In this document: piece by piece, positions 26,740 to 43,975 of the stretch
Layout of the letters: every line of letters begins with the position of its first letter
How positions within the stretch are numbered: the stretch's first letter is position 1
Origin: Oscillospiraceae bacterium
GTDB taxonomy: Bacteria; Bacillota; Clostridia; Oscillospirales; CAG-272
Reading direction: 5' to 3'
DNA length: 64,000 nucleotides
Assembly (NCBI GenBank): GCA_015065075.1
Contig: SVRA01000001.1
Coordinates: 12,234-76,233, forward strand
The notes under the pieces: model-generated
Seen by the model: only the letters and a program-made list of their open reading frames with translations
Databases searched by the model: none
What the model was told of the DNA's origin: nothing
Made by a program: the position numbers and the translations under genes

Positions 26740-26772
26740 TCAAATTAAAATCAGTTGTTTTGGAGAGATCAT

Positions 26773-27474
26773 ATGTTTGATACCATACTCAAAGACTTGT
26801 TCGAGATATTGCTGTGCCTTATAAGCATAGCTATATATGTTTTTGCCGTGGGCTCGGTGTTGCCTTCGTGGCTCTTGCGCTTAAGATGTTCCGTGCAGGA
26901 CAGAGGTCTTAATAAATATACGTATCCGAGCGGTAGAGGAATACTTTATGAACCGCACCCAACGTTGAGAAAATACGTAAGCTCGTATATACTCTTTGTT
27001 GACAACGGGGTGAAATACATAAGGTGTAAGGCCACCGACGGTGTTGAACGGATATCGTATTCCGTGGCCGTGTTTGACAGACACGGCAAGGTGATAGAGG
27101 TGCTTAAGACCACTGATGTCATAGGGCCCGCGGGTTGCACAAGGCGCGTTGCTTTGCCCAAGGAGACCTCGTACGTAACGCTTATGCTTGATGCGGTCAA
27201 TGAAAAAAAGATAGATAGCGCTACACAACTGACGCTTGACAAGAAAAAGGGAATAGCTTTTGGCGGACTTGTCGTCGTGCTTACGGTCATAGAAGCGTTT
27301 ATAATAAGAGCGATGATGCTTAAGGCGGTAAATCTCGTTAGAGTGTATCTGATGGGAGATTCGGCATTGGAAATAAGCGGAGCATTCGTATTTGTTGCGG
27401 CGGTGGTAATAAGTGCCGTTGGATTGGGCGCTATGTTCCTCAAAAAAAGAAAAGGCGGTCTTAAGATAAAATGA
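26773..27474 (+). CDS. hypothetical membrane protein (N-terminal TM, beta-rich middle domain, two C-terminal TM helices)
   Basis: The ORF track starts at TTG 26755, but the ATG at 26773 has RBS ggagag. The middle domain resembles that of the next gene. Confidence 0.6.
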   Translation: MFDTILKDLFEILLCLISIAIYVFAVGSVLPSWLLRLRCSVQDRGLNKYTYPSGRGILYEPHPTLRKYVSSYILFVDNGVKYIRCKATDGVERISYSVAVFDRHGKVIEVLKTTDVIGPAGCTRRVALPKETSYVTLMLDAVNEKKIDSATQLTLDKKKGIAFGGLVVVLTVIEAFIIRAMMLKAVNLVRVYLMGDSALEISGAFVFVAAVVISAVGLGAMFLKKRKGGLKIK

Positions 27475-27998
27475 GTGAAATAGATAAGATCACGGTAAAG
27501 GGAATTTACAAATATCCGCAAGCGGATGGATTTGTCAGTGTCAAGCAATTTATGTTCGTTTACAGAGAAGGTGTCAAGCACCTGATTTTGAGATGCTCGA
27601 ACGATACTGAAACTGTGTTGAGAACCGTCAGCTTCGTGCTTACGGAGCTTGACCGCGACGGCGCGGTGATAAGGGATCGCCGACTGTCATATGACGATAT
27701 AAACGCCGAGGCGGGAGCGATGTTTTCGTCGAGCAAGGGAATACCCTTGTCGGACGAATGCGTTGATTTCAGGATCCACTTCGTAAGGGCTAAGTCGGAT
27801 AAATATATTTATAAGGTCACGGGAAAAAGAGCGTATGCATATTATTTTCCCAAGAAAACCGAACGCAGATCGAAAATTTTTGATTTTGGATTTTCGGCAA
27901 GCCGATTTGATATGTCGCAGTTCAAGCCGACGGCGACTTTGATGGTAGGAGCATTGCTGCTGCTCATCACAGCATTGACCGTTATATCTCTTCTTTGA
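27471..27998 (+). CDS. hypothetical tail-anchored membrane protein, paralogous domain to the preceding gene
   Basis: 175 aa. Overlaps the upstream stop by 4 nt. C-terminal TM helix ATLMVGALLLLITALTVISLL. Confidence 0.6.
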   Translation: MSEIDKITVKGIYKYPQADGFVSVKQFMFVYREGVKHLILRCSNDTETVLRTVSFVLTELDRDGAVIRDRRLSYDDINAEAGAMFSSSKGIPLSDECVDFRIHFVRAKSDKYIYKVTGKRAYAYYFPKKTERRSKIFDFGFSASRFDMSQFKPTATLMVGALLLLITALTVISLL

Positions 27999-28052
27999 TA
28001 GGTCAAGATTTTCAGCGTGGTAAACAAACCTTATTTTACTTTGGAGAAAACG

Positions 28053-31000
28053 ATGTTCAAATATAACAGTATGATCTCAAGCATTAAGGACGACGACAAG
28101 GTGAGGATACTCACCGATGTTATGTCCTTGTCAGACGGAGAGAGAGTGCGTCTGGGGATCCCGGGATTTGCCGTTCTCAATATGCGACGTATGCTAAAGG
28201 ACGGAAAATATCCTTCGCCTCAGGCGTTGGCTCATTCATGGGACAATAAGCTTATATACGAGCTGTCGGGGGAGGTCGCGCTTTCCGCTGCAAGCTCGGC
28301 ATCAAGCGTGATATTAACACCGGGTGCAAAGGTGAAGCTATCTCCCTACAGAAACGAAATGTCGGAGGATATATATCTTTCACGGTCGCTTGCGACCGAG
28401 TTCGCGCGCGGGGTAAAGTACGCGGGCTCTGCGGCGGCTGTGTCGGGATATTATCTGTCGGATACTGACGTCGAGTGGATGGATGCCTCGCCTTCAAGGG
28501 CAGTCTTGCACGAGTTTTTGATAGAGCCGTTCAAGCGCACTCTTATTGACGGACAGGCGCCTGCGGTAATTACCGATAGACGTATTCTTGCAAATGAATA
28601 TTCAAACGAAAATGCATATTTATCGGACGAGAAAATGGGTAACGTGCCTAGCGGTACTTGCGTAGTAGCAAAGCGCGTTTCTGCGGAAGACACCGTGCCG
28701 TTCCTCGTAAATGGAGGAATATGCCTTAAGGGCTCGCAATCAGCCCTTGAAAACGCTCTTAAAACCTACTATAAGCTTCAAAAGAAGCAGGAGTCGGGTG
28801 AGGTCACTATGGGCGAGGTTGAAGCCGAGATAAAAGCGGGCAGAGCGATCTCCCCCGAGCTTATTGACGCTGCTCTTGAAAGATTATTCACTTTCCTGCT
28901 TAAATCGGATGCGGAGAAGGGCAAAAGGCTCCTTCCCGATCAAAAGGAACAGCTTGCGTTGCGCGCGACAAGAAGCTCCGTGGTTCTTTTGAAGAACGAA
29001 GGCGCAATGCTTCCCTTGAATATAAAAAACGTATCCTCGGTCGCTCTGATAAGCGGTATAGCGGATGAAAGCGGTCTTCTTGACAGATGTGAGGCACAGC
29101 TTTTAGCTAACGGAGTCGGTAAGGTAGAAAAGGCAAGGGGGTATGATTTTACTAAGGACGTCGCGACAAGCGATGACGATTGCCTTGAGGCACTTTCGGC
29201 AGTCGGCACGTGCGATCTGACGATCTTGTTCGTGGGACACGGCGAAAAGCGAGGAAACGATATTTCCTTATCGCATAAAGTATCTTTGCCCGCAAATCAG
29301 CTTGAATTGGCAGATAGGCTAATTCCTCATGCCAAAAAGGTCATCGTGGTTTTGGAAACCGGATATGGTGTTGATATGGCGTTTGCGGAGCCTTTCTGTG
29401 CGGTTATGCTGGCACCCTTTGGAGTGAGAAACGACGCTTCCGTGATAATTGATACGCTGCTTGGCAAGTCCGAGCCCTTGGGCCGATTGCCGTATACGCT
29501 TTATTCCGATATTGACGGATATTCAGAGAAGCATTTGTCGTATCGCGATAAATACGGCGTTAAATCGGGTAGATTCGTGGGATACAGATATTATACAACT
29601 GCGGGTCTTCAGGAAAAATATCCGTTCGGACACGGGCTTTCATATACGAAATTCGCTTATTCAAAGCTTGAGGTGAGCGGCAATACGGTCAGCTTCACGG
29701 TTACTAATACGGGTAAGCGTGCAGGCAGAGAGGTCGCCCAGATATACGTGGGATCGAAGGATTCTCGATTGATACGACCTGCTCGTGAGCTGTGCGGATA
29801 CGCCATTGTCGACCTTAACGTCAAGGAAAGCAAGCGTGTCAGTGTAGAAATTGAGCTTCCTGCGGTATTCGACGAGAACAGTAACAGCATGATAGTTGAA
29901 AAGGGAACGTACACCGTTTACGTGGGTTCGTCCTCAACCGATATAAAGCTGAGTACTAAAATTCACGGTGGAAGTGAAACCGTAAGCGCAGGATCGGAAG
30001 ATAAGCTTTACGAGTATCTTCAGACCGAATCAAACATTATAGGTGACAAATATACTTTAGAGGCAGGTTACAAACTTATGAAGAGATCCATAAAAAATAT
30101 AGTATGCGGAATAGGAGCGAGCGTCCTGGCGATAGCTCTCGGTGTATATAACGCATTAACGTCGTCTGCGACGTTTTTGGGAGTGCTTACCGCGATACTT
30201 GCGGTAACGGGAATAATTTTCTTTATCGTTGACGCGGTTGAGAAGAACAAGGCATATGCTAAAGAGCGCGAAATGATAGCCAAGGAAAATCAGAAGCACT
30301 TTGAAGACGCTGAAAAGCTTGAGGAATTCTCTGCGGAAAATATGTTCAGAACCGAATTTGACGCAGTGTCGGAAAATCAGAACGACACGCAACAGGTTAC
30401 CGTAAAGGAGCACAAGAGCTACGACGAGTCGCTCAAATACGTAGACAAAAAGCTGGATTTCGCCCGTGCGACCAAGGAGTTCAAGGTTTTTGCGCTTGAG
30501 AGAGGGCTTATGCTTGACGATGAAGTGGTGAAGGGCATTTTCGCGTCTGTTTCCGCTTCGAGAATGTTGGTATTCAAGGATATGAGCTCGGAGGATTTCA
30601 AGAGCTTGATATCGGCGCTCTCCGAATATTTCGGAACGAAGACCTACATTGATAAGGTTGATCCTTCGTATGTTAACGAGGAAAGCGCCCTTTTCGCAGT
30701 AGATGAAGAGGGACACCGTGTCAAGAAGAATATGACTTATGCTATCGAAAGCGCCTTGAACGTCAAGGAAAAGCTGCATATAGCCGCGCTCGACGGTGTT
30801 AAATCAGAGGATATGATGGTGTACTTTGCTCCTTACGTTAAGCATGCGAAGAATCCGTTTGGATATACCTCGGTGGTCGCGCATAACGAGCGTAATAAGG
30901 AAACGGCGTACTATATACCCAAGAATATATGGTTTGCGATAAACCTTGCTATTGGTGAATCCTACGATATGATCCCCGACTTTCTCTCTGAGATAGCAAC

Positions 31001-31610
31001 GGTAAATCGTATCTCGATCTCAAAGAGCACACCCTCGAATAAACACTCGGATTTTGGCAATTTCTATTATTATCAGCTGGACTACATAAGTGAGCGTGCC
31101 GTAAACCGTTACGTTATAGGTGAGGAGCTCTGGAAGAAGATAGACTCTCTTGAAAAGCGCGTAAAGAGCATTGCGCCCGAATTTGCGATAAACAACAAGA
31201 TGTGTTTGGCATTTGAAAAGAGTGCGGCAGCGCTGATGGCAGCAGGGCTCGAAATAAAGCAGAGCGTTGATATGGCTCTGGCGGTAAAGATCATGCCCTC
31301 GATTCTGTTCGTGACAAGCGGCAAGAAGACCGAGTCGGGAGACTCGATCGTTGAGATATTTGATTCGGTTTTCGGTGACGACGATATGATGAAGTGCGCC
31401 GAGGTGATCAAGGATGCCGAAACCTATAAAAAAGACAGCTATTCACAGCCCGAGACAGTTCAGAATTCGGATATCGAATACGAGGTCAAAACGACAGAAG
31501 ATGATAAGGCAGACGTAGCCGAGGCCGTTGACTTGGCAGAGGATACCGCAGACGTAAATGAAGATCAATCGCCCTCTGATAGCGAAGATTCAAATAAAGA
31601 TCAGGATTAA
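28053..31610 (+). CDS. multidomain protein: divergent glycoside hydrolase family 3-like region + Fn3-like domain + TM hairpin + degenerate McrB-like AAA+ domain + acidic tail
   Basis: The ORF runs from GTG 28017, but the ATG at 28053 has RBS ggaga.
- GH3 hallmarks: LGIPGF, SVVLLKNEGAMLPL, LGRLPYT, GHGLSYTKF and an Fn3-like REVAQIYVG...RELCGYAIVDL.
- Two TM helices at 30099-30239.
- The C-terminal region aligns with the downstream ATPases but has Walker A DMSSEDFK and Walker B LDGVK. Confidence 0.8.
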   Translation: MFKYNSMISSIKDDDKVRILTDVMSLSDGERVRLGIPGFAVLNMRRMLKDGKYPSPQALAHSWDNKLIYELSGEVALSAASSASSVILTPGAKVKLSPYRNEMSEDIYLSRSLATEFARGVKYAGSAAAVSGYYLSDTDVEWMDASPSRAVLHEFLIEPFKRTLIDGQAPAVITDRRILANEYSNENAYLSDEKMGNVPSGTCVVAKRVSAEDTVPFLVNGGICLKGSQSALENALKTYYKLQKKQESGEVTMGEVEAEIKAGRAISPELIDAALERLFTFLLKSDAEKGKRLLPDQKEQLALRATRSSVVLLKNEGAMLPLNIKNVSSVALISGIADESGLLDRCEAQLLANGVGKVEKARGYDFTKDVATSDDDCLEALSAVGTCDLTILFVGHGEKRGNDISLSHKVSLPANQLELADRLIPHAKKVIVVLETGYGVDMAFAEPFCAVMLAPFGVRNDASVIIDTLLGKSEPLGRLPYTLYSDIDGYSEKHLSYRDKYGVKSGRFVGYRYYTTAGLQEKYPFGHGLSYTKFAYSKLEVSGNTVSFTVTNTGKRAGREVAQIYVGSKDSRLIRPARELCGYAIVDLNVKESKRVSVEIELPAVFDENSNSMIVEKGTYTVYVGSSSTDIKLSTKIHGGSETVSAGSEDKLYEYLQTESNIIGDKYTLEAGYKLMKRSIKNIVCGIGASVLAIALGVYNALTSSATFLGVLTAILAVTGIIFFIVDAVEKNKAYAKEREMIAKENQKHFEDAEKLEEFSAENMFRTEFDAVSENQNDTQQVTVKEHKSYDESLKYVDKKLDFARATKEFKVFALERGLMLDDEVVKGIFASVSASRMLVFKDMSSEDFKSLISALSEYFGTKTYIDKVDPSYVNEESALFAVDEEGHRVKKNMTYAIESALNVKEKLHIAALDGVKSEDMMVYFAPYVKHAKNPFGYTSVVAHNERNKETAYYIPKNIWFAINLAIGESYDMIPDFLSEIATVNRISISKSTPSNKHSDFGNFYYYQLDYISERAVNRYVIGEELWKKIDSLEKRVKSIAPEFAINNKMCLAFEKSAAALMAAGLEIKQSVDMALAVKIMPSILFVTSGKKTESGDSIVEIFDSVFGDDDMMKCAEVIKDAETYKKDSYSQPETVQNSDIEYEVKTTEDDKADVAEAVDLAEDTADVNEDQSPSDSEDSNKDQD

Positions 31611-31621
31611 GGAGATCGCAA

Positions 31622-32944
31622 ATGCTAAACTTTACAATGGCCAACGCGTTTGGCTCAATTCCAGCCGCATTTATGTCGCTTACTGATCTTTTGTCTTCTC
31701 CCGGTGCGATCTTTACTTATCTCTTCGTAGTGCTAGCGGCAATAGCGGTCATAGTTATCGCCATTATCATTAAGGAAAGAGGTCAGTCGGGCGCGGTAGA
31801 GTATAAGATTTCTTATGACGGCGCGGCAGCCCCCAAAACGAAGAAAGAGGAGCCCGAGGAGACCGGAGAGCGCTTCTATATGCTGAGTACGATAGACGGC
31901 AATGAGAAGAGTTATATGAGAACGAGCTACGATAAAGGAGTAACGCTCAAGGAGCTGTGCGACAATTTCAGGAACTACTCTGCAAGTAATCTGGGACTGT
32001 ATTACGATATCGAGGATATCAGAAGATTTATTGCAGGCATGTCGGTATCACATATATTGATACTTCAGGGTATGTCGGGAACAGGTAAGACCTCGCTTGC
32101 GTACGCTTTCGGCTCGTTTATGGATAATTCGTCAACGGTAATACCCGTACAGCCTATGTGGAAGGAAAGGACTGACCTTATAGGATACTATAACGAGTTT
32201 ACGAAGAAATTTAACGAAACGCTCCTGCTTGAGAAGATGTACGAGGCGAATTACAGTGAGGATATATACATATCGGTGCTCGACGAGATGAATATTGCGA
32301 GAGTAGAGTACTATTTTGCTGAATTTTTGTCACTTTTGGAGCTTCCGAACCCCGACGACAGATATCTTGAGGTAGTGCCTGACAAATGGCCTACAGACCC
32401 GAAGAATCTGATCGAGGGAAGAATAAAGCTGCCGAGCAATATGTGGTTTATCGGAACGGCAAACAACGACGACTCGACGTTTGCGATATCGGATAAGGTA
32501 TATGACAGAGCGATGGTGTTGAATCTTGACACGAGAAGCGAGAGATTTGCGGCACCGTTGACCGAGAAGATGCATATATCGGCGAAGCAGTTCAAGGAGC
32601 TAGTAGATGAAGCGATAAAGGAATATGATATCAGCAGAAGAAACAGAGCAAGACTGGAGCAGCTGGACAAATATCTTGTCGATCATTTCCATATCACGTT
32701 CGGAAACCGAATAATGAAGCAGATAAGAACGTATATTCCGGTGTATATAAGCTGCGGAGGCGACGAGCTAGATGCACTTGACGACATATTGTCGAAGAAG
32801 GTAATGAGAAAGCTTGAAACGCAGAACCCGATATATCTGAGAAACTCAGCCGAGGGACTTATATCGTTCCTTGACGAATTGTTCGGTCAGGATAAGATGA
32901 CCTTGTGCAAGGACTTTATCCACAGACTCCAGAGAAACGCCTAA
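31622..32944 (+). CDS. membrane-anchored McrB-like AAA+ NTPase (paralog 1)
   Basis: 440 aa.
- One N-terminal TM helix.
- Walker A GMSGTGKT (32069-32092).
- Walker B VLDEMN (32276-32293), followed by IARVEYYFAEFLSLLE, as in the McrB segment DEINRANLSKVFGE.
- FIGTANNDDS, an NxxD-type motif as in McrB NTAD.
- No DNA-binding N-terminal domain. Confidence 0.8.
   Translation: MLNFTMANAFGSIPAAFMSLTDLLSSPGAIFTYLFVVLAAIAVIVIAIIIKERGQSGAVEYKISYDGAAAPKTKKEEPEETGERFYMLSTIDGNEKSYMRTSYDKGVTLKELCDNFRNYSASNLGLYYDIEDIRRFIAGMSVSHILILQGMSGTGKTSLAYAFGSFMDNSSTVIPVQPMWKERTDLIGYYNEFTKKFNETLLLEKMYEANYSEDIYISVLDEMNIARVEYYFAEFLSLLELPNPDDRYLEVVPDKWPTDPKNLIEGRIKLPSNMWFIGTANNDDSTFAISDKVYDRAMVLNLDTRSERFAAPLTEKMHISAKQFKELVDEAIKEYDISRRNRARLEQLDKYLVDHFHITFGNRIMKQIRTYIPVYISCGGDELDALDDILSKKVMRKLETQNPIYLRNSAEGLISFLDELFGQDKMTLCKDFIHRLQRNA
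31829..32944 (+). repeat. 1.1 kb direct repeat, copy A (ATPase module)
   Basis: Near-identical to 34921-36036 at a constant offset of 3092 bp. The encoded 371 aa are identical. The differences I found (31831, 31837, 31912, 32932) are all synonymous. Confidence 0.95.
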
Positions 32945-32959
32945 AAAGGAAATTACCGT

Positions 32960-34660
32960 ATGAACGAGTTAGATACATATTATCGAGCACTGCTCGAGTT
33001 GCGAAACACAACGAATAGTGTCCGACAGTGTGCGATGCTAAACGCGGCTATCGCCGCGGCTGACGCCGAGGATGACAAAATAGTCGTAACGCGCGCAAAG
33101 TGCACCGTCGACGAGGATTGGATATGCGCTATTGAGGAAGGTCTTATACATATCGAAAAGGCCATCAAGGAGGAGCGTCAGTTTATACGCTCCAACGGCG
33201 AGGTCATTCCGATAGAGAAGGTGAAGAACGTGTCCAAGGAATCTGTACAGCACCTGGCAAGACACGGAAATCTCATCACTCACGTGCCCGAGGACGAAAA
33301 CGATATCGTGCCCGATAAGCTCTTTTCGGTAGAGCGACTCAACGATTATACCGTGTACGAAAACCGTTTTCTGTATATGCTGCTGTGCTATCTTCGCGAT
33401 TTTGTCACGCTGAGATATAATAAGATCCTGGATCTTACAAATAAATACGACGGCGCGCTTACTATGAATAAGACCGTATCGTCCGCAAAGAGAAAGATGA
33501 CATTCGTCTTAGATCTCAAGGAAGAGCGCCGCGACGACAGATACCTGAGCAACAACAATAAGGCAAAGCCGCTTATCGACCGAATAGACATCATTCTTAA
33601 GACTATATTGGCATTTTTGGCGACTCCGCTTATGGAATACGCGTCAAAGGTGGCTATGCTCAAGCCCCCGATAACCAAGACCAACGTATTGAAGATGGAT
33701 AACAACTTCAAGGGCGCGGTCAAGCTTTACGATTTTATAATAGCTTACGACAAGGTGGGCTATTCCGTTGAAAACGAGGCGCTCACCATCTCTCCCTTTA
33801 ACGATAACCTTGCGGCAGAGCTTGCCGATTGTAGCGCTTTGATATCTTTTATAACCTACGAGTACGGACTCGGTATAACCTCCGAGCTCAAGGACCGTTA
33901 TATAGAAAATGAAAGCCGCCGCAAGCTAGAGGAGCTCAGAAAAAAGACCGAGCAGCTCGAGGCGCTCTCAAGAAGACTCAAGAAGTCCGACGTGAGCGTT
34001 GAGGAATATATACTTGCTTTAGAAAAGCACGTGCGCGCCCTTGACGCCGAGTGCGCAAAGATCGAGGCGCTCAGAAATGAAATATCGGCTATGAAGGCCG
34101 CCGAGCGTGAGCATATCGCCAAGATCGGCGAGCTGACCGAGGCGGTAGATCTTGTCAAGCAGGAGCTGAACGAGGAAAAGCACAATCACTTGGCGGAAAA
34201 AGCCCTCCTTCAAAAGCAACATCAGAGCGATATGGATGCTCTTTGCCAAACTCACAGAGATGAGCTCCGCGTCAACAACGAGCGCCATGAAAAAGAGCTT
34301 GAGGAGATCCGCTTGCACATTGGCAAAATGGAAAACGACTTTGCCGCACAGCTTGATCGTGAGAGGGCAGTATCGCAGTCGGTACGCGACGAATTAGCCA
34401 AAAAGACCGAGAAATACGATCAGCTATACGAGAGATTTCTCTTGGCAGAGGCGATCGCGAACGGGGTGCGTGCCCGCCGAGGAGAAGAATTGGGCGATTT
34501 CACCGATAAGGAGAGCTTTGACGAGCTCGAAAAGCAGTACAACGCCTTTCTGCGCTTCTATAAGAAGGAATGGCAAAAGACTAAGAAGAAGATAAGAAAG
34601 AATACGCTCAAGATTGAAAATTTTAAGAAAACGAAAGACGACAGTGACGGTCTTGAATAA
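32960..34660 (+). CDS. coiled-coil protein in the McrC-equivalent position, no recognisable nuclease domain
   Basis: 566 aa. The N-terminal roughly 300 aa are globular, including YTVYENRFLYMLLCYLRDFV. The C-terminal roughly 260 aa are heptad-rich E/K/L/R coiled coil ending in a basic tail, KKEWQKTKKKIRKN. It lies between the two McrB-like genes. Confidence 0.65.
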   Translation: MNELDTYYRALLELRNTTNSVRQCAMLNAAIAAADAEDDKIVVTRAKCTVDEDWICAIEEGLIHIEKAIKEERQFIRSNGEVIPIEKVKNVSKESVQHLARHGNLITHVPEDENDIVPDKLFSVERLNDYTVYENRFLYMLLCYLRDFVTLRYNKILDLTNKYDGALTMNKTVSSAKRKMTFVLDLKEERRDDRYLSNNNKAKPLIDRIDIILKTILAFLATPLMEYASKVAMLKPPITKTNVLKMDNNFKGAVKLYDFIIAYDKVGYSVENEALTISPFNDNLAAELADCSALISFITYEYGLGITSELKDRYIENESRRKLEELRKKTEQLEALSRRLKKSDVSVEEYILALEKHVRALDAECAKIEALRNEISAMKAAEREHIAKIGELTEAVDLVKQELNEEKHNHLAEKALLQKQHQSDMDALCQTHRDELRVNNERHEKELEEIRLHIGKMENDFAAQLDRERAVSQSVRDELAKKTEKYDQLYERFLLAEAIANGVRARRGEELGDFTDKESFDELEKQYNAFLRFYKKEWQKTKKKIRKNTLKIENFKKTKDDSDGLE

Positions 34661-34665
34661 TTGTT

Positions 34666-36036
34666 ATGGGAAATAAAAAGATAGACAAAAAGTGGATATT
34701 TTTGATGATCGCGGTTGCAGTTGCCACGCTTTTGTTGGCATACGCGCTGAGCACGGCAGACCTTAGCTCTATGCTGAACGGTGCAGTGCGCCCACAGCAC
34801 GTCAGGGCGATAATAATATTTATGATCGCGATTCCGATCCTTCTTATCGCGCTGATTGCGGTTATGCTCCTGATGAAGCCTGAGACGAAGACGGTGGTAA
34901 CGCATATGCCCGACGTAGTTGCTCCCAAGACGAAGAAAGAGGAGCCCGAGGAGACCGGAGAGCGCTTCTATATGCTGAGTACGATAGACGGCAATGAGAA
35001 GAGCTATATGAGAACGAGCTACGATAAAGGAGTAACGCTCAAGGAGCTGTGCGACAATTTCAGGAACTACTCTGCAAGTAATCTGGGACTGTATTACGAT
35101 ATCGAGGATATCAGAAGATTTATTGCAGGCATGTCGGTATCACATATATTGATACTTCAGGGTATGTCGGGAACAGGTAAGACCTCGCTTGCGTACGCTT
35201 TCGGCTCGTTTATGGATAATTCGTCAACGGTAATACCCGTACAGCCTATGTGGAAGGAAAGGACTGACCTTATAGGATACTATAACGAGTTTACGAAGAA
35301 ATTTAACGAAACGCTCCTGCTTGAGAAGATGTACGAGGCGAATTACAGTGAGGATATATACATATCGGTGCTCGACGAGATGAATATTGCGAGAGTAGAG
35401 TACTATTTTGCTGAATTTTTGTCACTTTTGGAGCTTCCGAACCCCGACGACAGATATCTTGAGGTAGTGCCTGACAAATGGCCTACAGACCCGAAGAATC
35501 TGATCGAGGGAAGAATAAAGCTGCCGAGCAATATGTGGTTTATCGGAACGGCAAACAACGACGACTCGACGTTTGCGATATCGGATAAGGTATATGACAG
35601 AGCGATGGTGTTGAATCTTGACACGAGAAGCGAGAGATTTGCGGCACCGTTGACCGAGAAGATGCATATATCGGCGAAGCAGTTCAAGGAGCTAGTAGAT
35701 GAAGCGATAAAGGAATATGATATCAGCAGAAGAAACAGAGCAAGACTGGAGCAGCTGGACAAATATCTTGTCGATCATTTCCATATCACGTTCGGAAACC
35801 GAATAATGAAGCAGATAAGAACGTATATTCCGGTGTATATAAGCTGCGGAGGCGACGAGCTAGATGCACTTGACGACATATTGTCGAAGAAGGTAATGAG
35901 AAAGCTTGAAACGCAGAACCCGATATATCTGAGAAACTCAGCCGAGGGACTTATATCGTTCCTTGACGAATTGTTCGGTCAGGATAAGATGACCTTGTGC
36001 AAGGACTTTATCCACAGACTCCAAAGAAACGCCTAA
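34666..36036 (+). CDS. membrane-anchored McrB-like AAA+ NTPase (paralog 2)
   Basis: 456 aa. Unrelated N-terminus with two TM helices, then 371 aa identical to paralog 1. Confidence 0.8.
   Translation: MGNKKIDKKWIFLMIAVAVATLLLAYALSTADLSSMLNGAVRPQHVRAIIIFMIAIPILLIALIAVMLLMKPETKTVVTHMPDVVAPKTKKEEPEETGERFYMLSTIDGNEKSYMRTSYDKGVTLKELCDNFRNYSASNLGLYYDIEDIRRFIAGMSVSHILILQGMSGTGKTSLAYAFGSFMDNSSTVIPVQPMWKERTDLIGYYNEFTKKFNETLLLEKMYEANYSEDIYISVLDEMNIARVEYYFAEFLSLLELPNPDDRYLEVVPDKWPTDPKNLIEGRIKLPSNMWFIGTANNDDSTFAISDKVYDRAMVLNLDTRSERFAAPLTEKMHISAKQFKELVDEAIKEYDISRRNRARLEQLDKYLVDHFHITFGNRIMKQIRTYIPVYISCGGDELDALDDILSKKVMRKLETQNPIYLRNSAEGLISFLDELFGQDKMTLCKDFIHRLQRNA
34921..36036 (+). repeat. 1.1 kb direct repeat, copy B (ATPase module)
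   Basis: See copy A. The repeat ends exactly at the stop codon, and the flanking sequences differ. Confidence 0.95.
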
Positions 36037-36076
36037 AGGGGCAAAACAATAACTATATATAGAGAAGTTTTTAATT

Positions 36077-38833
36077 ATGAACAGATCAAAATTGATTATC
36101 ATACTTAGCGCGGCTATACTTTGTGTAGTGACGGTATTGTGCGTGATGCTGGTGATGATATTTCCGAGCTTGACCGAAAACGTAAACAAGCTGGTGTTTG
36201 AGTCGGAAAGCTGTGAGAGCTATTACGACGGAACCGCTTTAACGGGTACTAAGTGGTCGTTGGTTTCGGGAGAGCTGAAGCCGGGACACACCGCCCAGGT
36301 AACCCTTTCGGGCAGTCAACGCTACGTGGGAACGACACCGAATCTTATGCAGATCGTAATAGTTGATTCCAACGGAAAAGACGTAACGTCACGATACAAT
36401 ATAGAGTGCAAACCGGGAACGCTGACTGTAAAGCCCGCCAATATAACGATCGTCAGTAACTCCAGGGCCAAGATATACGACGGCCAGCCGCTATTTGACG
36501 GTGGGTACATGTTGCTTCCCGAGGACGCGTTGCCGTCGGGGCACGTGTTGGACGTTGAAATAACGGGAAAAATAACCGAAATAGGTGAGACGGCGAATAC
36601 TATATCCCGTGTCGTCGTGTATGATGTTGGCGGAAAAGATATTTCCTTTAATTTCAACATCATTCCCGTTGAGGGACGCCTTGTCGTTTTGGATGAGGAC
36701 GACCCCAGACTCAATCTTGATATCAACAAGGACGGCATGCCCGACTTGAATATAGATTTTGACGGCGACCTGATTCCCGATCTGAATATAGATCTTAACG
36801 GAGATTTTTTATCAGACCTGAACATAGATCTTAACGGCGACCTTCTGGCTGATCTTAATATAGATCTTAACGGAGATATGCTGTCCGATCTTAATATAGA
36901 TCTTAACGGAGACAGATTATCTGATCTTAATATAGATCTCGACGGAGATAAGATTCCCGATTTGAATATAGATCTTGATGGAGATAAGATCCCTGACGTG
37001 AATATAGACGGTGACGGAGATAAGATACCCGACCTGAACATAGATATCGATGGGGATAAGCTTCCCGATGTGAACGTAGATATTGACGGTGACGGTATCC
37101 CGGATATAAACATCGACGGACTTGGCAACGGAAACAGTAATGGCAACGGGAACGGAAACGGAGGCTCGGGCAAACTCGACATCAGCGGAAATATCGGTTC
37201 GGGAGATTTGAACGGAGATGGAAAGAAGACCGTATGTTACAAAGTAACGTCGGACTCCACGGACAGGATATACCTCAAAGTAACTAATTTCGGAAGCTAT
37301 AACGGAAAACAGTGGTCGGCTGCCAAGCAGTACGACGAGCTTATATACGGTTCCTTCTCGGCTTCGTATCTGCCGTCGATAGCGATGCTCAATTCAGGCA
37401 GAATGCCGAGCAACGTATACGTTGAGGTGTTGAACGAGCAGGCGGTAGTGCCGTATTATTCATACGGATTGTTATGGAGTGAAAGCGACATTGCGGTTTC
37501 ATATCAGGATGAAAATTTGGAATTCGTTTGCTTTGGCGGAGGACATAGGGGCTTAACGACGCCTTACGATCTTTACGATTACGAGGAAAGATACAGAAGC
37601 TTTGTTTACGAAAATTATCTTGATATAGACCCTGATACGTTTGGGTATATGCAAAAGATAATCGAAGCAAACGGATTTTCCGCAAGCTCACCCGGTGTGA
37701 TAGAAGCGGTTGCCGAATATATTCAGCAATCCGCAAAATACGATCTCAAATACGACAGATCCCTCGATAAAGAGGACAATATAGTAGTCAAATTCCTTGA
37801 CGAATACAAGACGGGTATATGTCAGCATTATGCAAGCGCAGCGACGCTTTTGTACAGAGCTCTCGGAATACCCGCAAGATACACCGTGGGATTTGTTTGC
37901 GATGCCGTTGCGGGAAAGACCGTAGAGGTCACTGCAATGCAGGCACACGCTTGGGTAGAGGTTTATATAGACGGCTTGGGCTGGATATTCGTTGAAGTAA
38001 CGGGCTCGGACGGATCGGGTGATATTCAGGAAAATCCCAATAAGATCACCGTGACTCCATCAAGCTGCGAAAAGAGATACGACGGACAGCCGCTTGTGGC
38101 AGAAAACGAGATTCAGATGACTCCGGCGATTCTGAATCTGATCAATAATGGATACACCCTCGTTACCGTTGTTTCGGGAGAGAGGACCGACCCGGGCAAA
38201 TCCGAGAGCTTTATCGCGGATATTCGAATATACGATCCTTTTGGCGAGGACGTTACACACGAATTCCAGATCGAGCGCAAGACGGGTGTCGTGCACGTGT
38301 ATATAGGAGAGTTCTACTTCGCGAGTGAAACCGTTTCCAAGGAATACGACGGAACGGCGCTTGAGGGCGATCTGTCTAACCTTGTATATATGGGAGCGGA
38401 CTTCGACGCGACCAATTATACGTATCAAGCAACCCCGTCGATCTTGGCTAACATCAAAAACGTGGGAAGTACCCAAAACTCGTTCAATGTGAAAATATTC
38501 AACGAGAATAACGAAGACGTTACCGATATGTACAAGATCGTAAAGCAGTGGGGATCTCTGGAAATAGAACCGAGGAGCATTACCGTGACTGCGGGAAGCG
38601 CTACGGCGTCTTATACGGGAGAGCCACTCGTTTGTAATGATATCTTCGTTACAAGCGGAATACTGGTTGAAGAAGAATACATATTTGATTACGTTGTTGA
38701 GGGCTCACAGACAGACAGAGGCCGCTCCGACAATATAGTCAAGAGCATTACCATATACGATGCAAATGGTAACGACGTAACCCAGAATTACGCCATAGTC
38801 TTTGAAAAAGGTACGTTGAGAGTAACGAACTAA
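36077..38833 (+). CDS. membrane-anchored transglutaminase-like (Cys protease fold) surface protein with MBG (YGX-type) repeats and an acidic 9-aa repeat array
   Basis: 918 aa.
- N-terminal signal anchor.
- MBG-like modules ending ...YNIECKPGTLTVKP and ...NYAIVFEKGTLRVTN.
- TGase core GICQHYASAATLLYRALGIPARYTVGF...HAWVEVYIDGLGWIFVEVT, with the Cys codon at 37820. Confidence 0.85.
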   Translation: MNRSKLIIILSAAILCVVTVLCVMLVMIFPSLTENVNKLVFESESCESYYDGTALTGTKWSLVSGELKPGHTAQVTLSGSQRYVGTTPNLMQIVIVDSNGKDVTSRYNIECKPGTLTVKPANITIVSNSRAKIYDGQPLFDGGYMLLPEDALPSGHVLDVEITGKITEIGETANTISRVVVYDVGGKDISFNFNIIPVEGRLVVLDEDDPRLNLDINKDGMPDLNIDFDGDLIPDLNIDLNGDFLSDLNIDLNGDLLADLNIDLNGDMLSDLNIDLNGDRLSDLNIDLDGDKIPDLNIDLDGDKIPDVNIDGDGDKIPDLNIDIDGDKLPDVNVDIDGDGIPDINIDGLGNGNSNGNGNGNGGSGKLDISGNIGSGDLNGDGKKTVCYKVTSDSTDRIYLKVTNFGSYNGKQWSAAKQYDELIYGSFSASYLPSIAMLNSGRMPSNVYVEVLNEQAVVPYYSYGLLWSESDIAVSYQDENLEFVCFGGGHRGLTTPYDLYDYEERYRSFVYENYLDIDPDTFGYMQKIIEANGFSASSPGVIEAVAEYIQQSAKYDLKYDRSLDKEDNIVVKFLDEYKTGICQHYASAATLLYRALGIPARYTVGFVCDAVAGKTVEVTAMQAHAWVEVYIDGLGWIFVEVTGSDGSGDIQENPNKITVTPSSCEKRYDGQPLVAENEIQMTPAILNLINNGYTLVTVVSGERTDPGKSESFIADIRIYDPFGEDVTHEFQIERKTGVVHVYIGEFYFASETVSKEYDGTALEGDLSNLVYMGADFDATNYTYQATPSILANIKNVGSTQNSFNVKIFNENNEDVTDMYKIVKQWGSLEIEPRSITVTAGSATASYTGEPLVCNDIFVTSGILVEEEYIFDYVVEGSQTDRGRSDNIVKSITIYDANGNDVTQNYAIVFEKGTLRVTN
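36710..37120 (+). repeat. about 14 tandem 27-bp (9-aa) repeats encoding DLNIDLNGDxLx / DxDGD acidic loops
   Basis: The repeat is visible at both DNA and protein level, for example cttaatatagatcttaacggagat. It is followed by a (GN)n linker at 37121-37165. Confidence 0.9.
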
Positions 38834-38859
38834 CGAAAGTATAGATAGGGCAGGTTTTT

Positions 38860-41800
38860 ATGCAATACGATAATTATCAAAAAAAGATAGATAAGGTTGC
38901 CTCTTTTATGAGGTGTATCTTCAAGCATATAGTGAAGATAAGTATAGCTGTAGCCATGATTGTGGTTGCAACTATAACCGTTCTCGCTACTAAAGGAATA
39001 ATTATTAGTGACGGCGCCTGCCCGAAGACTATGGTTTATGGCGAAAAAATGTCGCGCAATTCCAAAGCGTTTCTTTCCTCGGTAAAGTATGAGTACTGCG
39101 CCTACGGCACGAGCGACTGGAGCACCGAAGAGCCCGTTATGCCGGGTAAATATAACGTGCGTACGGTTTCTAACGCCTCCTTTGGCGCTAAAAGGTACGG
39201 AAAGGTAGAAACCTTTACTATTATGCCAAAGAGCATAACCGTGTATCCTTGTGACACCGTGGTATACGGCGATGATCTGATGCCGACGGCAGAGCTTGAG
39301 AGGGGAGATAACTTTTCCTCGTGCGATTTCGACGTTTTGAGTATAAGTACAGATAGTATGAAGATGTCGGCTATTGCGGATGCTTCAAGCGTGGTTATAG
39401 TCGATTCGGAGGGCAACGACGTAACGGCAGCGTACGATGTTTCGGTTTCGGTGGGCGATTCGAGGATAACGAAGCGTCCCTTGGCTTTGGAGATCGGTAG
39501 CAAAATTGCGGAATATGACGGAAATGAGTTGATATGTGAAGAATATCAGATAACCGAGGGAAGCGTAGTCAAGGGAAATCGCCTTGAGCTTGTTTTTGAC
39601 GACTATGTGCTGGACGTCGGCACGGTTTCAAACGATCCTATCATCAGTTTGACCGATAAAGACGGCAACGACGTGAGAAATTTTTACGAGTTGTCTATCA
39701 AAAGCGGAAGCTTGACACTGACGCCCCGTGATATTACGGTATCTACCAAGAGCAGGGAATTCACTTATGACGGACAACCGCACAGAGTGTTAGACATTAA
39801 GGTGTCAAACGGCACGCTTGTTGCAGGCCACTCTTTATTGTCTGGAAAGGCGACGGAGGTGGTAAATGCAGGCGAATACGAGAACGAAGTTTCGGCGTCT
39901 GTTATTGATTCGGATGGCAGAGACGTGACGCAAAATTATATCATTTCCTACGATTACGGAAAGTTGACGGTAAATAAAAGACCGATAACCATTACTACGG
40001 CAAGTGCAGAGTTCTTTTATGATGGAACTTATCACAGTGAACCTTTCACCTATAGTGATAATCTGGCTGTAGATCACGTGATCAGACCTGTTTTCCAGGT
40101 AGTAGGTTCTGATGTTGATGAAGATGCGGAGCCTGAGATCAGAAACGTAGGATCGATTTCCAATGCTTTTGACTGTCGTATTCTGGACGTTGTATATTAT
40201 GACGTTACCGACAACTACGAAATAACCTACGAATATGGAACTATTACAATTGTTCCGCGTCCTATAATAATACGTACCCATAGTTTAAGCGTTATGTACG
40301 ACGGTGAAGAGCACAGTGCCCCCGATTTTGAAATATTTTTGGATCTTGATAGGGACGGAAAGCCGGACGGAACATATGAGGTAGACGAGCCGTGGATAGA
40401 TGAAGTTTATCCTGACATAGACGTAGATTATCCTGGAATAAACGTAGATGACAGTGTGATCAACGACATACCTGGCGACGATGTTTATTTCTATTACTAC
40501 GGTATTCCGGCAACCGATGCCGTAACCTTAGTGTCATATACTACCATAACCGATGTGGGAGAGCTAAAGAACGTCGTCGAAATAGATATATCGAGCGATC
40601 TCGATTCGGGTATGGAAAACTACGAGATAACGTACGAATACGGTACTCTTGAAGTCACCAAACGTCCCATAACCGTAAAGCCCACGGACGTACAGGTGAT
40701 TTATAACGGACAATCTCAGGGTGGAGTGGATGTTGAGGTAGCGTATTGGTCGACACAGCTTGTAAACGGACACGCTTTGAAATTTGACGGTATAATATCC
40801 GGCTCTCGCATTGACGCAGGATACGAGCAACTTTCCCTCATCGGAGAATGCTTCGTATTCAACGGAGATCAGGATATATCCTATAACTATGATGTTACCT
40901 TTGAAACGGGAACTCTGGAGATCCTGCGCCGTCCCATATACGTATACACGGGAAGCAGTGAAAAGATGTACGACGGTACTTGGCTGACCGACTCTAGGTA
41001 CAGCGTGTGGGATCCGGTATTTGATAATGTGGTCCCTTGGTCTTCGTGGATTACGACTGACGCGGAGCCGTTTACGGACGAGATAGGTTTAGAGTATTAT
41101 GATCTTGTAGCAGGTCACGAGCTTATTCTTACCACCGACGGTATGATAATCGACGTGGGAACGGTTGAAAACACTGTATCTGAGTATAGCATTTTATCGG
41201 GTGATGACGATGTCACTCACAACTACGACATTTACTTTGATTACGGCGAATTGACGATCACCCCGAGAAAAATAACCGTAGCGACTGCAACTAATTCGTG
41301 GATATACGACGATACCGTGCACGAAGATCTTAATTTTGAGGTGGTATCGGAGATCGACCTCGTGGGATCGCACTCGTTGTATATGTACAACTATACTTCC
41401 ATTGAAAATGCGGGTACGGTGGATAACGTTCTTGACTTTTGGGTGGTCGATGAGAACGGATGGGATATCTCCTACAACTATGAGATAACCTACGAATACG
41501 GAACGCTTACCGTTGTCCCGAGACCTATAACGGTGCAGACGGATTCAATGTCGTGGGTGTATGAGGACGTATATTTCGCGTATGACTCTTTCAGCATAAC
41601 GGATGGCGAGATAATTTGGTATCATAGTTATTGGCCTGTAGATGTTGCAAGCATTCGTGACGTCGGATCCTGTGATAACGTTATCAAGATAGAGATATAT
41701 GACGGTGAAGAGAACGTCACGGGCAATTACAACATATCCTACGATTACGGAACCTTGTCTGTAACTCCCCGACACATAACGGTTACCTCGGGCTCGAGAT

Positions 41801-43854
41801 CGAAAGTATATAACGGAAGAACGTGGTCATACGAGGAATACGAGGTATCGGGTGACGGACTTGTCGAGTCGCATTTATCCTTGGTCGTTAACAGCACGTC
41901 GGTATGTGAGGTAACGGTCGTACCTAACGAGCTTGAAATACTTATATTCAACCTTGAGGGCGACGTTACGAAGAATTATGAGATAACGTACGTATACGGA
42001 ACGCTTGAGGTCCTTGAAGGGCAAGAGCCCGGCGGTCCCGGCGGTCCTGACGGCCCAGGTGACGATACTGGTGACGATACGGGAGACGACTCCGGAGACG
42101 GTTCCGGTGGCGGCTCGGGCGTGGGAAAGCTTGATTTGAGTGGAAAGATAAACGGCGGCCCTCTTGGCGGCGGTGAAGGCGAAGGTGAGATTTTGCCCTC
42201 GTATATAATCTGGTCTGCAAAGAACGGTATAATGTATTTGAGAGTAAAGAGCTTTGGCGATTATAACGGAAACGGCTTTGATGAAGCAGAAGAATATTCC
42301 GCTATGATAGACTCCAAATATTCGGCATTGTATCTCTCCTCCATAGCTCTTATGGAAAGCGGAAATTCGTCCGATATTATCAAGATAAAATCCTTGAACG
42401 GTCAGTACGTGTTGCCGTATTATGCAAATCCGTTTGTTGACGGCATCGTTCAAACGAGCGACGTTATCGTACCTGAAATGACGAATGGACATTATCAGCT
42501 TGACGTATACACTCTCGAAAATATTGGAGATCTGAGTCTTACGGAGGCGTACGCGAGCTATGAGAGGGAATACCGTGAATTCGTATATCAAAATTATCTT
42601 GCTATAGATGACGAAACGCTGGAATATATGCGTGGACTTATTGAAAGCTATGGCTTTAATAAGTATTCACCGAGTGTTATCCACGACGTTGCAAACTATA
42701 TAGCAAACTCTGCAATATACGATATGGAATATGACAGAGCGCTTGATCAGAGTGATAACGTAGTAATTGCCTTCCTTGAGGCGTATAAGAGCGGAATATG
42801 CCAGCATTACGCCGCATCTGCGGTCATGCTGTATCGCGCGTTGGGTATTCCTGCAAGATATACGATAGGATATGCCGCAAATGCCCGTGAGAATGAGTGG
42901 ACGTTGGTCACCGGCATGGAAGCGCACGCGTGGGTAGAGATCTATCTTGACGGAATCGGCTGGATAATGGTAGAGGTCACGGGCTCGGGTAACGATTTCG
43001 GTGAAATGCCTGAACCTCCCACAGAAAACACCATCGTGATAACCCCCTCGTATCAGTACAAGGAATACGACGGAACTCCGCTTTACGCGGCTAACGAGAT
43101 ATCCGTGCCCTTCGAACTTCTTGAGCTTCTTGATCAGGGATATACTTACGAAGTAGTGGTTAACGGTCAGCAGACCGAGGTCGGTATGGGTAAAAGCTAT
43201 ATACAAAGCTTTGTTCTGTACGATCCGTACGGAAACGACGTTACGGCTGATTTTGATATAAGGTATGAGAATGGAACGTTGGCTGTCGCATACAAAACGG
43301 TTAAGATCCTCTTGTATAAGCTTCAGAAATACTATGACGGAACGCCTCTTACCTTTACCGATGAGGACTATGAGTATATAACCCAGCCTCCTGAGGGTAT
43401 GACGATCGATATAAACGTAAATATATCACTTACAGACGCGGGATATCTTACGATGTCTGACATAAACAACAATATAGACGAGTACATCACGTATACGGTG
43501 TATATAAACGGCGTTCGGACGGAAGGTGTATTGTTGGTGGTAGACGTATATGAGGGAATGAGTCAGGACTACGTGCCTATCAGAATAGACCGAGTTGACT
43601 TGGAGCTGACGTCGGCAAGTATGTCAAAGGATTATGACGGAGAGGCGCTTGTATATGATAAGGTTTATATATCCAAGGGAACCCTTGCAAACGGTGACGT
43701 GCTTGAAGCGCACGCATCGGGTATGATAATCGACAAGGGAAGGACTGAAAATATCATCTTTGAGGAAGACGTTCGTATTATCAATAGGGATGGAGAGGAC
43801 GTTACCGATAATTATAATATTACGCTGATATTCGGAAGTCTCATGGTACAATAG
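38860..43854 (+). CDS. giant membrane-anchored transglutaminase-like surface protein with at least 12 MBG (YGX-type) repeats
   Basis: 1664 aa.
- TM anchor (ISIAVAMIVVATITVLA).
- Ten N-terminal modules ending NYEITYEYGTLTVxPRPIT.
- G/P/D-rich linker.
- TGase core GICQHYAASAVMLYRALGIPARYTIGY...HAWVEIYLDGIGWIMVEVT, with the Cys codon at 42799.
- Further C-terminal modules. Confidence 0.85.
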   Translation: MQYDNYQKKIDKVASFMRCIFKHIVKISIAVAMIVVATITVLATKGIIISDGACPKTMVYGEKMSRNSKAFLSSVKYEYCAYGTSDWSTEEPVMPGKYNVRTVSNASFGAKRYGKVETFTIMPKSITVYPCDTVVYGDDLMPTAELERGDNFSSCDFDVLSISTDSMKMSAIADASSVVIVDSEGNDVTAAYDVSVSVGDSRITKRPLALEIGSKIAEYDGNELICEEYQITEGSVVKGNRLELVFDDYVLDVGTVSNDPIISLTDKDGNDVRNFYELSIKSGSLTLTPRDITVSTKSREFTYDGQPHRVLDIKVSNGTLVAGHSLLSGKATEVVNAGEYENEVSASVIDSDGRDVTQNYIISYDYGKLTVNKRPITITTASAEFFYDGTYHSEPFTYSDNLAVDHVIRPVFQVVGSDVDEDAEPEIRNVGSISNAFDCRILDVVYYDVTDNYEITYEYGTITIVPRPIIIRTHSLSVMYDGEEHSAPDFEIFLDLDRDGKPDGTYEVDEPWIDEVYPDIDVDYPGINVDDSVINDIPGDDVYFYYYGIPATDAVTLVSYTTITDVGELKNVVEIDISSDLDSGMENYEITYEYGTLEVTKRPITVKPTDVQVIYNGQSQGGVDVEVAYWSTQLVNGHALKFDGIISGSRIDAGYEQLSLIGECFVFNGDQDISYNYDVTFETGTLEILRRPIYVYTGSSEKMYDGTWLTDSRYSVWDPVFDNVVPWSSWITTDAEPFTDEIGLEYYDLVAGHELILTTDGMIIDVGTVENTVSEYSILSGDDDVTHNYDIYFDYGELTITPRKITVATATNSWIYDDTVHEDLNFEVVSEIDLVGSHSLYMYNYTSIENAGTVDNVLDFWVVDENGWDISYNYEITYEYGTLTVVPRPITVQTDSMSWVYEDVYFAYDSFSITDGEIIWYHSYWPVDVASIRDVGSCDNVIKIEIYDGEENVTGNYNISYDYGTLSVTPRHITVTSGSRSKVYNGRTWSYEEYEVSGDGLVESHLSLVVNSTSVCEVTVVPNELEILIFNLEGDVTKNYEITYVYGTLEVLEGQEPGGPGGPDGPGDDTGDDTGDDSGDGSGGGSGVGKLDLSGKINGGPLGGGEGEGEILPSYIIWSAKNGIMYLRVKSFGDYNGNGFDEAEEYSAMIDSKYSALYLSSIALMESGNSSDIIKIKSLNGQYVLPYYANPFVDGIVQTSDVIVPEMTNGHYQLDVYTLENIGDLSLTEAYASYEREYREFVYQNYLAIDDETLEYMRGLIESYGFNKYSPSVIHDVANYIANSAIYDMEYDRALDQSDNVVIAFLEAYKSGICQHYAASAVMLYRALGIPARYTIGYAANARENEWTLVTGMEAHAWVEIYLDGIGWIMVEVTGSGNDFGEMPEPPTENTIVITPSYQYKEYDGTPLYAANEISVPFELLELLDQGYTYEVVVNGQQTEVGMGKSYIQSFVLYDPYGNDVTADFDIRYENGTLAVAYKTVKILLYKLQKYYDGTPLTFTDEDYEYITQPPEGMTIDINVNISLTDAGYLTMSDINNNIDEYITYTVYINGVRTEGVLLVVDVYEGMSQDYVPIRIDRVDLELTSASMSKDYDGEALVYDKVYISKGTLANGDVLEAHASGMIIDKGRTENIIFEEDVRIINRDGEDVTDNYNITLIFGSLMVQ

Positions 43855-43918: not shown

Positions 43919-43975
43919 AAATGGAAAATTTTTAAACCCGCGGTCTCTGTGGTTGCGGAATTTTTTGTAGAAGAG

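Follow-up and report, generated by a model that had tools for sequence, protein, structure and literature searches.

Transglutaminases of the TgpA type are widespread, and TgpA is critical for the viability of Pseudomonas aeruginosa; the substrates are not known, and the recurrent pairing of these enzymes with AAA+ proteins (ATPases associated with diverse cellular activities) is unexplained. A 64,000-nucleotide (nt) stretch of DNA from an Oscillospiraceae bacterium (contig SVRA01000001.1 of assembly GCA_015065075.1, positions 12,234 to 76,233 of the forward strand; hereafter the window) raises the same question in another setting. Downstream of AAA+ genes it encodes two large paralogous proteins, here called A and B, each with a transglutaminase (TGase) module in the middle of a repeat stalk. 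What are these proteins, and how are they tied to the AAA+ genes beside them? A first-pass annotation, made from the sequence without database searches, had pointed out the arrangement, and we find that its observation is real and was correctly described in its essentials; its interpretation of A and B is partly supported. We propose, with a probability of about 0.6, that A and B form the outward-facing part of a membrane-associated system of gut Clostridia whose nine genes are conserved, and that they are active thiol enzymes regulated by the nucleoside triphosphatase (NTPase) complex of the operon. Literature searches, which did not cover subscription journals, found no description of this TGase family or of the operon. 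The coupling of TgpA-type surface enzymes to McrB-like membrane NTPases in a nine-gene operon appears to be undescribed.

Two surface proteins with a TgpA-type enzyme module

The open reading frames of A and B lie on the + strand, 26 nt apart, at the coordinates and in the reading frames first annotated (Table 1). The layout that had been described for both proteins was borne out: a signal anchor is followed by YDG/MBG-type repeats, a low-complexity linker, the TGase module and three further repeats. The two proteins are indeed paralogues, with TGase modules that are 45% identical. Each contains a single hydrophobic segment, located at the N terminus behind basic residues (residues 6–24 in A and 24–42 in B), which fits a signal anchor and would place the remainder of A and B outside the cell. 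A C-terminal LPXTG sorting signal is absent from both proteins, whose ends (...GTLRVTN in A and ...GSLMVQ in B) directly follow the last repeat. No known binding domain was detected in A or B, and PADLOC returned no defence family for A, B or protein X, the product of gene 6.

Three lines of evidence bear out the TGase-fold core: a profile search, a sequence match to TgpA in the PDB and a confident structural model that superposes on TgpA. Pfam Transglut_core (PF01841; cut-off 23) matched residues 542–640 of A (E = 9.4e-22, 77.8 bits) and 1275–1372 of B (E = 9.3e-21, 74.6 bits), and it also matched 52 of 52 relatives. The conserved unit, at ~290 residues (375–662 in A), is larger than this Pfam core. 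In a phmmer search against the PDB the best match was P. aeruginosa TgpA (6G49, E = 2.9e-9), with the N-terminal YLKVTNFGSYNGKQW segment of the module aligning weakly with LYWRALTMERFDGRRW of TgpA. An AlphaFold2 model of the A module, built with 88 family sequences, reached a predicted local distance difference test score (pLDDT) of 91.7 and a predicted template modelling score of 0.89. When this model was searched with Foldseek, the periplasmic domain of TgpA came out on top (6G4H and 6G49; E = 8e-14, template modelling score 0.61–0.63 over 282 columns), followed by a putative cysteine protease from Cytophaga, Streptococcus pyogenes TglA and animal transglutaminases; TgpA, TglA and the cysteine protease 3ISR were all matched with a Foldseek probability of 1.00.

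The Cys and His motifs of a papain-like triad, and the positions given for the two Cys codons, proved correct when the sequences of A and B were checked. In A, GICQHY is followed by H624 within HAWVEVY and E640 within GWIFVEVTG; in B, the same GICQHY is followed by H1356 within HAWVEIY and E1372 within GWIMVEVTG. Asp is the usual third triad residue of the superfamily, and both proteins have Glu instead. The first-pass suggestion that this Glu completes the triad is upheld by the HMMER alignment, in which Glu640 (FVEVT) shares a column with the TgpA Asp (SVDPT), and by variation within the family. Across 88 aligned family members, Cys is kept in 87/88 and His in 87/88, and the acid position is filled by Glu in 84 and by Asp in 4; the sole sequence without the Cys (P0046) also lacks the His. 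A wider set of 134 further representatives from a 50%-identity library yielded ~178 modules with Glu and at least 23 with Asp. Exchange with Asp only, in a family of ~40% identity, is the pattern expected of a triad acid, so that Glu is a trait of the clade. Papain-like enzymes are known with Asn, Gln, Asp or Glu as the third triad residue (PMC10318531). Judged by these alignments, Glu-for-Asp is a real but conservative, family-wide variant of modest interest, and the modules are modelled as a papain-like fold with a Cys-His-Glu triad whose geometry is taken from the superposition on TgpA. When tblastn scores were compared to see whether A-type and B-type modules represent two ancient clades, only the closest relative (L009) kept them clearly apart.

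Conserved linkage to McrB-like NTPase genes

A and B are the products of the last two genes of a predicted nine-gene operon (25192–43854, + strand), in which neighbouring genes overlap or are separated by 5–40 nt. We surveyed the synteny of 77 species-representative loci, of which 25 have at least 4.5 kb of upstream DNA and 52 are truncated. The linkage to upstream AAA+ genes noted in the first pass is real and conserved: an AAA_5 gene lies upstream of the TGase gene in 22 of the 25 species-level loci, and 30 of the 52 truncated loci have an AAA_5 fragment at the contig edge. The same gene order recurs amid different flanking genes (L001, L004, L006, L011, L016, L085 and L086).

The first-pass annotation had likened the AAA+ motors to those of MoxR–TgpA operons, and here it has to be corrected. 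Pfam assigned the AAA+ proteins to AAA_5 only, with no AAA_3 (MoxR-type) match at E ≤ 0.01, and no MoxR-type chain was among the PDB matches of AAA5 at E ≤ 1. Their best PDB match was McrB (E = 0.0024), with an ungapped alignment of GTANNDDS to GLMNTADRS. The proteins are McrB-like and membrane-anchored, and neither DUF58 nor VWA matched any of the nine operon products. With AAA+ proteins that are not MoxR and no DUF58/vWA partner, the MoxR–TgpA operon is an analogy and not a homology.

AAA5a carries the Walker A motif GMSGTGKTS, the Walker B motif VLDEMN and the signature GTANNDDST, and these (Walker A as G[MLI]SGTGKTS) are kept in ~58–60 of 68 homologous stretches. AAA5 is the most conserved component of the system, with a median identity of 68% (range 55–81%) compared with 40% for both X and the TGase module across the same set of species. 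The AAA5 proteins lack a DNA-binding N-terminal domain of the McrB type; their N termini consist of one or two hydrophobic membrane segments and a short linker. PADLOC matched AAA5 to the candidate defence protein PDC-M26A (E = 4e-46), over the AAA domain only (profile positions 314–430 of 724).

From about residue 72 on, the two AAA5 proteins show 100% identity, whereas their membrane-anchor N termini differ, and their genes share a long direct repeat (Table 1). The two copies are 98.5–100% identical in L001, L004, L011, L024, L036, L049, L054 and L060, and only 73–84% identical in Lachnospiraceae-type loci (L067–L084), which suggests an old duplication that gene conversion keeps uniform in one lineage. 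Many contigs begin or end inside AAA_5 (for example, L002, L005, L007 and L019–L021), and many X homologues (P0255–P0374) stand alone on contigs of ~2.0–2.4 kb; short-read assemblies are evidently interrupted by the repeat. One assembly pair, L003 and L004, differs by the presence of X and the second AAA_5 gene; given the many X homologues alone on short contigs, this difference may reflect assembly collapse over the 1.1-kb repeat.

Neither profile searches nor the model found a nuclease domain in X, the C-terminal half of which is modelled as a single helix. A loop of X (residues 81–127) contains many invariant residues (for example, N79, G80, E81, H98, H102, P118 and R126) and was modelled with a pLDDT below 50. 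In the model this loop behaves as expected of one that would stay disordered until it meets a binding partner, for instance the pore of an AAA+ ring.

The GH3-like product of gene 4 ends in a domain that is homologous to AAA5 (BLASTP E = 2e-8 over 314 amino acids (aa)) but lacks the Walker A motif. The protein has no signal peptide, and its membrane segments are central. We know of no description of a fusion between a glycosidase-like part and a dead AAA domain. No family was assigned to the products of genes 1–3; gene 1 is syntenic in L001, L006, L011, L016, L085 and L086.

Repeat stalk and linker

Repeat copies were delimited with a hidden Markov model (HMM) trained on the repeats of A and B themselves, with a repeat length of ~85 aa. 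Most copies scored E values of 1e-20 to 1e-31 with this HMM, for totals of 5 repeats in A (2 + 3) and 13 in B (~10 + 3). The signature YDG...NY.I.Y.YG.L.V.PR.IT given in the first pass is real. The accompanying label, MBG of the YGX type, stood less well: the YGX type, MBG_2, is the weakest match, and Pfam YDG is the best among relatives, although in A and B all three score under the threshold. Individual window repeats reached E = 0.017 with MBG (16 bits against 23.3, at full-length coverage), 0.046–0.07 with MBG_2 and 0.055 with YDG. In the 52 family members, YDG matched 14 (best E = 2.5e-10), MBG matched 5 (best E = 6e-6) and MBG_2 matched 2. On these scores the stalk is a divergent YDG/MBG-type repeat, for which 'YDG domain' is the better label. 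The repeats resemble Pfam YDG (PF18657) and MBG (PF17883 and PF18676) in their length of ~85 aa, the YDG start and the N-Y-x-I...G-x-L-x-V end, whereas E values of only 0.017–0.07 set them apart as a divergent subfamily.

The linker of A, first described as of low complexity, is more than that: it is a tandem repeat of the 12-aa unit PDLNIDLDGDKI, which, by its sequence, appears to resemble a DxDxDG calcium-binding loop. The copy number of the corresponding 36-nt unit is likely to vary between strains. NCBIfam MSCRAMM matches (SdrC, ClfA and ClfB) were rejected as compositional, as they covered the acidic linker only, at E ~1e-4 and ~20 bits against cut-offs of at least 999. The Pfam families AgI_II_C2 and DUF896 were likewise not accepted as domains of A and B, since their matches were fragments of 17–34 residues on the repeat motif D..G.DVT..Y.I.

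Features of the locus and flanking genes

Table 1 Features of the nine-gene operon and of proteins A and B (window positions)
Feature	Position	Strand	Description
Promoter match	25058..25086	+	Sigma-70-like TTGACA-17-TATAAT, 12/12, upstream of gene 1; consensus match only
Gene 1	25192..26739	+	515-aa polytopic membrane protein; 4–5 hydrophobic segments, then ~340-aa domain
Gene 2	26755..27474	+	239-aa membrane protein; 3 hydrophobic segments
Gene 3	27471..27998	+	175-aa protein; C-terminal membrane anchor
Gene 4	28017..31610	+	1197-aa GH3-like protein; GH3 C-terminal and Fn3-like domains, two membrane segments (residues 692–738), degenerate AAA_5-like C-terminal domain
Gene 5, AAA5a	31622..32944	+	440-aa McrB-like AAA+ NTPase; one N-terminal membrane segment
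Direct repeat, copy 1	31829..32945	+	1117 nt; 4 mismatches to copy 2
Gene 6, X	32960..34660	+	566 aa, soluble; alpha/beta N-terminal domain, then ~160-residue single helix
Gene 7, AAA5b	34666..36036	+	456 aa; AAA+ domain shared with AAA5a; N-terminal anchor differs and has two hydrophobic segments
Direct repeat, copy 2	34921..36037	+	
Gene 8, A	36077..38833	+	TGase protein, 918 aa
A, signal anchor	36092..36163	+	N-terminal, residues ~6–29
A, N-terminal repeats	36182..36688	+	Two YDG/MBG-type repeats, residues 36–204
A, linker	36740..37089	+	9.7 copies of 36-nt (12-aa) unit PDLNIDLDGDKI, then G/N-rich tract
A, TGase module	37199..38062	+	TgpA-like, residues 375–662; N-terminal beta subdomain and papain-like core
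A, Cys582 codon	37820..37822	+	Nucleophile
A, His624 codon	37946..37948	+	
A, Glu640 codon	37994..37996	+	Third triad position
A, C-terminal repeats	38036..38824	+	Three YDG/MBG-type repeats, residues 654–916
Gene 9, B	38860..43854	+	TGase protein, 1664 aa
B, signal anchor	38929..38991	+	N-terminal, residues ~24–44
B, N-terminal repeats	39226..42012	+	About ten YDG/MBG-type repeats, residues 123–1051; two with insertions
B, TGase module	42157..43044	+	TgpA-like, residues ~1100–1395
B, Cys1314 codon	42799..42801	+	
B, His1356 codon	42925..42927	+	
B, Glu1372 codon	42973..42975	+	
B, C-terminal repeats	43024..43848	+	Three repeats, residues 1389–1663; middle one degenerate
Terminator-like hairpin	43938..43958	+	Best of scanned region; 8 pairs, then T-run; 84 nt past B stop

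Two putative lipoprotein genes follow (44050–46470 and 47493–51347). They lie beyond the terminator-like hairpin, and the first is matched in only one related locus (L009), which places both outside the operon unit. Both products are large predicted lipoproteins, with N termini that end in LASCG and FASCG and with acidic or Thr-rich low-complexity linkers; the linker of one is encoded at 44179–44296 by 13 copies of the 9-nt repeat GATGATACC. Pfam gave no family for either. From 51493 on, the window contains a surface-polysaccharide-like locus (Bac_transf, Acyl_transf_3 and an aldo/keto reductase), and upstream of the operon lie genes for a ZnuA-type ABC transporter and a PMI-ROK fusion.

Family size and carriers

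An enzyme domain in the middle of a long stalk had been called unusual, and this holds only in comparison with characterised proteins: the module family comprises 700 cluster representatives (at 50% identity) with E ≤ 1e-30, a number that rises to 5626 with a limit of E ≤ 1e-10. Of the best 134 representatives (P0121–P0254), about half have two TGase modules and some have three or four, with lengths of up to 5441 aa; one locus (L048, 6314–10897) has five TGase modules in tandem. Source annotations of the relatives read only 'transglutaminase domain-containing protein' or 'hypothetical'. Among the labels of the carriers are Clostridia, Eubacteriales, Christensenella, Borkfalkia, Scatosoma, Oscillospiraceae and Lachnospiraceae, with a few Acholeplasmataceae and Haloplasmataceae.

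Proposed role and alternatives

In the arrangement that we favour, A and B are held in the membrane by their single N-terminal signal anchor and display a TgpA-type papain-fold module on a stalk of YDG/MBG-type beta repeats. The stalk of A is short and joined to the acidic linker of 12-residue repeats, that of B has about ten repeats, and three repeats extend beyond the enzyme in both; because the stalks differ in length, one active site would stand farther from the membrane than the other. By analogy with TgpA in vitro, the modules could act as thiol enzymes in transamidation (Gln–Lys cross-linking), or they could carry out a related hydrolysis as isopeptidase, protease or deamidase. Their targets would be polymers of the envelope or surface. 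One possibility, raised by the lack of a sortase signal in both A and B, is that they fix the rods or partner proteins covalently to the cell wall. The other operon products (the two membrane-anchored McrB-like NTPases, X, the GH3-like protein with its dead AAA_5 domain and the three small membrane proteins) would form a complex on the cytoplasmic face that either controls the assembly or activity of the rods or supplies energy for it. Such a complex would parallel the MoxR–DUF58–TgpA operons with a different AAA+ lineage, and would also be Esr-like (see below).

Several observations weigh against this proposal. We infer co-transcription of the nine genes only from their spacing and from consensus motifs, and in 3 of the 25 species-level loci (L070, L079 and L080) no AAA_5 gene lies upstream of the TGase module. 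The analogy with TgpA names no substrate for A and B, and cross-linking, isopeptidase or protease, and deamidase chemistry are indistinguishable by sequence. All genomic matches are metagenome-assembled genomes (MAGs) from animal or human gut. X matched DUF2357 (the N-terminal part of McrC) below threshold (21.5 bits against 23.3; 16 of 55 homologues at E ≤ 1e-3), and neither Foldseek nor a PDB profile search matched X to McrC. With this sub-threshold score, no nuclease and no structural match to McrC, a McrBC ancestry of the AAA5/X pair is plausible but not established.

Could A and B instead be covalent adhesins, with a stalk-borne TGase that cross-links the cell to its neighbours or to proteins of the host or the diet (mucus glycoproteins, for instance), and with upstream genes that matter only for export? 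The architecture of repeat stalk, acidic linker and surface anchor is adhesin-like, all carriers come from gut samples, and relatives reach four or five modules and 5441 aa. The TGase module also evolves faster than AAA5 (40% against 68% median identity), as is typical of exposed, interaction-driven proteins. However, no known binding domain was detected, the enzyme sits in mid-stalk with three conserved repeats after it rather than at the tip, and a tight linkage to cytoplasmic NTPases that spans orders is unexpected for a simple adhesin; we consider this explanation unlikely. Lower still is the likelihood that AAA_5, X and AAA_5 form a McrBC-derived defence module that merely adjoins two unrelated surface enzymes. 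That view draws on the PADLOC candidate PDC-M26A and McrB as matches of AAA5, the similarity of X to DUF2357, and the L003 and L004 loci, which differ by the presence of X and the second AAA_5 gene. Yet the latter difference may be the assembly collapse considered above, no nuclease or other effector domain was detected, and the N-terminal regions are membrane anchors and not DNA readers. AAA5 is 55–81% identical across species, unlike the patchy pattern of defence islands. The place directly upstream of the TGase genes is retained in Christensenellales-like, Lachnospiraceae, Oscillospiraceae and Acholeplasmataceae MAGs, and a dead AAA_5 domain homologous to AAA5 is present in the GH3-like protein next door.

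The TGase modules might also be pseudo-enzymes, structural or binding domains that kept the fold without catalysis. Inactive TGase-fold proteins are known, among them Rad4/XPC, which is present among the Foldseek matches, and P0046 has lost both Cys and His. Against this stands the retention of Cys and of His, each in 87/88 sequences, together with an acid that is always Glu or Asp, despite ~40% overall identity; the triad is likewise kept in the 134 representatives of the wider set. Catalytically dead modules are therefore very improbable.

The proposal of thiol enzymes under the control of an NTPase complex can be extended, tentatively, to an undescribed envelope machine. The nine genes would then combine a McrBC-derived NTPase switch, stripped of its nuclease, given membrane anchors and duplicated, with a GH3-like sensor bearing a dead AAA domain, the whole being mechanically or allosterically coupled to the TGase rods. 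It might build a covalently cross-linked surface layer or, in the way suggested for the Esr pathway, sense an attack on the surface (by phage, epibiont or host factors) and pass a signal into the cell. If this were true, an AAA+ lineage would have been recruited to TgpA-type enzymes a second time, independently.

The conserved nine-gene operon is more interesting than the Glu variant. The independent pairing of a TgpA-type module with a McrB-like AAA+ lineage argues that NTPase–TGase coupling is functional and not accidental, and the operon offers a second system in which this coupling can be examined. At ~19 kb, and conserved in many abundant uncultured gut Clostridia, it likely shapes their cell surface. 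It may also exemplify the reuse of restriction-type McrBC machinery for a task that does not involve DNA.

Comparison with known systems

The closest characterised relative is TgpA (PA2873; 6G49 and 6G4H), which A and B match best in both PDB sequence and structure, the whole two-subdomain module of ~280 residues being superposable and the G-x-C-x-H-Y, HAWVE and GW motifs aligned. Both enzymes lie outside the cytoplasmic membrane, and both are genetically linked to an AAA+ protein. The periplasmic domain of TgpA has TGase activity in vitro, and the protein is a polytopic membrane protein of six helices with the module in a periplasmic loop (PMC3507681). In contrast to this polytopic design, A and B combine a single N-terminal anchor with YDG-type repeats, 5 in A and 13 in B; the TgpA_N domain was not matched in A or B, and 1 of 52 relatives matches it. 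At the third triad position TgpA has Asp, whereas A and B have Glu.

The P. aeruginosa tgpA locus and yeaC-yeaD-yebA of Bacillus subtilis are MoxR–DUF58–transglutaminase operons. The PFNA cluster of Bifidobacterium is another (PMC8430577). The window operon is like these in having a conserved gene for a cytoplasmic AAA+ NTPase beside the gene of an extracytoplasmic TgpA-like enzyme. It differs in that its AAA+ proteins are McrB-like (AAA_5), membrane-anchored and duplicated, and in that a DUF2357-like coiled-coil protein, a fusion of GH3-like and dead AAA parts and three small membrane proteins stand in place of a DUF58/vWA protein.

A census of McrBC systems that covers CoCoNuT mentions, without analysing them, membrane-anchored coiled-coil relatives of McrBC that are tied to the assembly of surface structures (CoCoPALM; PMC11090510). 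The window operon shares with McrBC, CoCoNuT and CoCoPALM an AAA_5 NTPase with a McrB-type signature and a DUF2357-like partner with a long coiled coil. The signature reads GTANNDDST here and MNTADRS in McrB, with NNDD ambiguous between NxxD and NxD-D. The window operon has no nuclease, no FtsB-like domain and no signal-peptidase partner, and is linked to TGase rods.

The Esr pathway of oral Actinomycetota brings together, in one cluster, a filamentous repeat-stalk protein, a TGase proposed to fix the stalk to the surface and a MoxR–vWA pair (bioRxiv 10.64898/2026.09.08.750141). A repeat-stalk surface protein, a transglutaminase and an AAA+ protein thus share a cluster in both systems. Esr has a MoxR ATPase, kinases and FHA proteins, whereas the window operon showed neither kinase nor FHA genes. 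EsrA, with its Ig-like repeats and beta-propeller, and the TGase EsrD are separate proteins; in A and B, stalk and enzyme are joined in one polypeptide.

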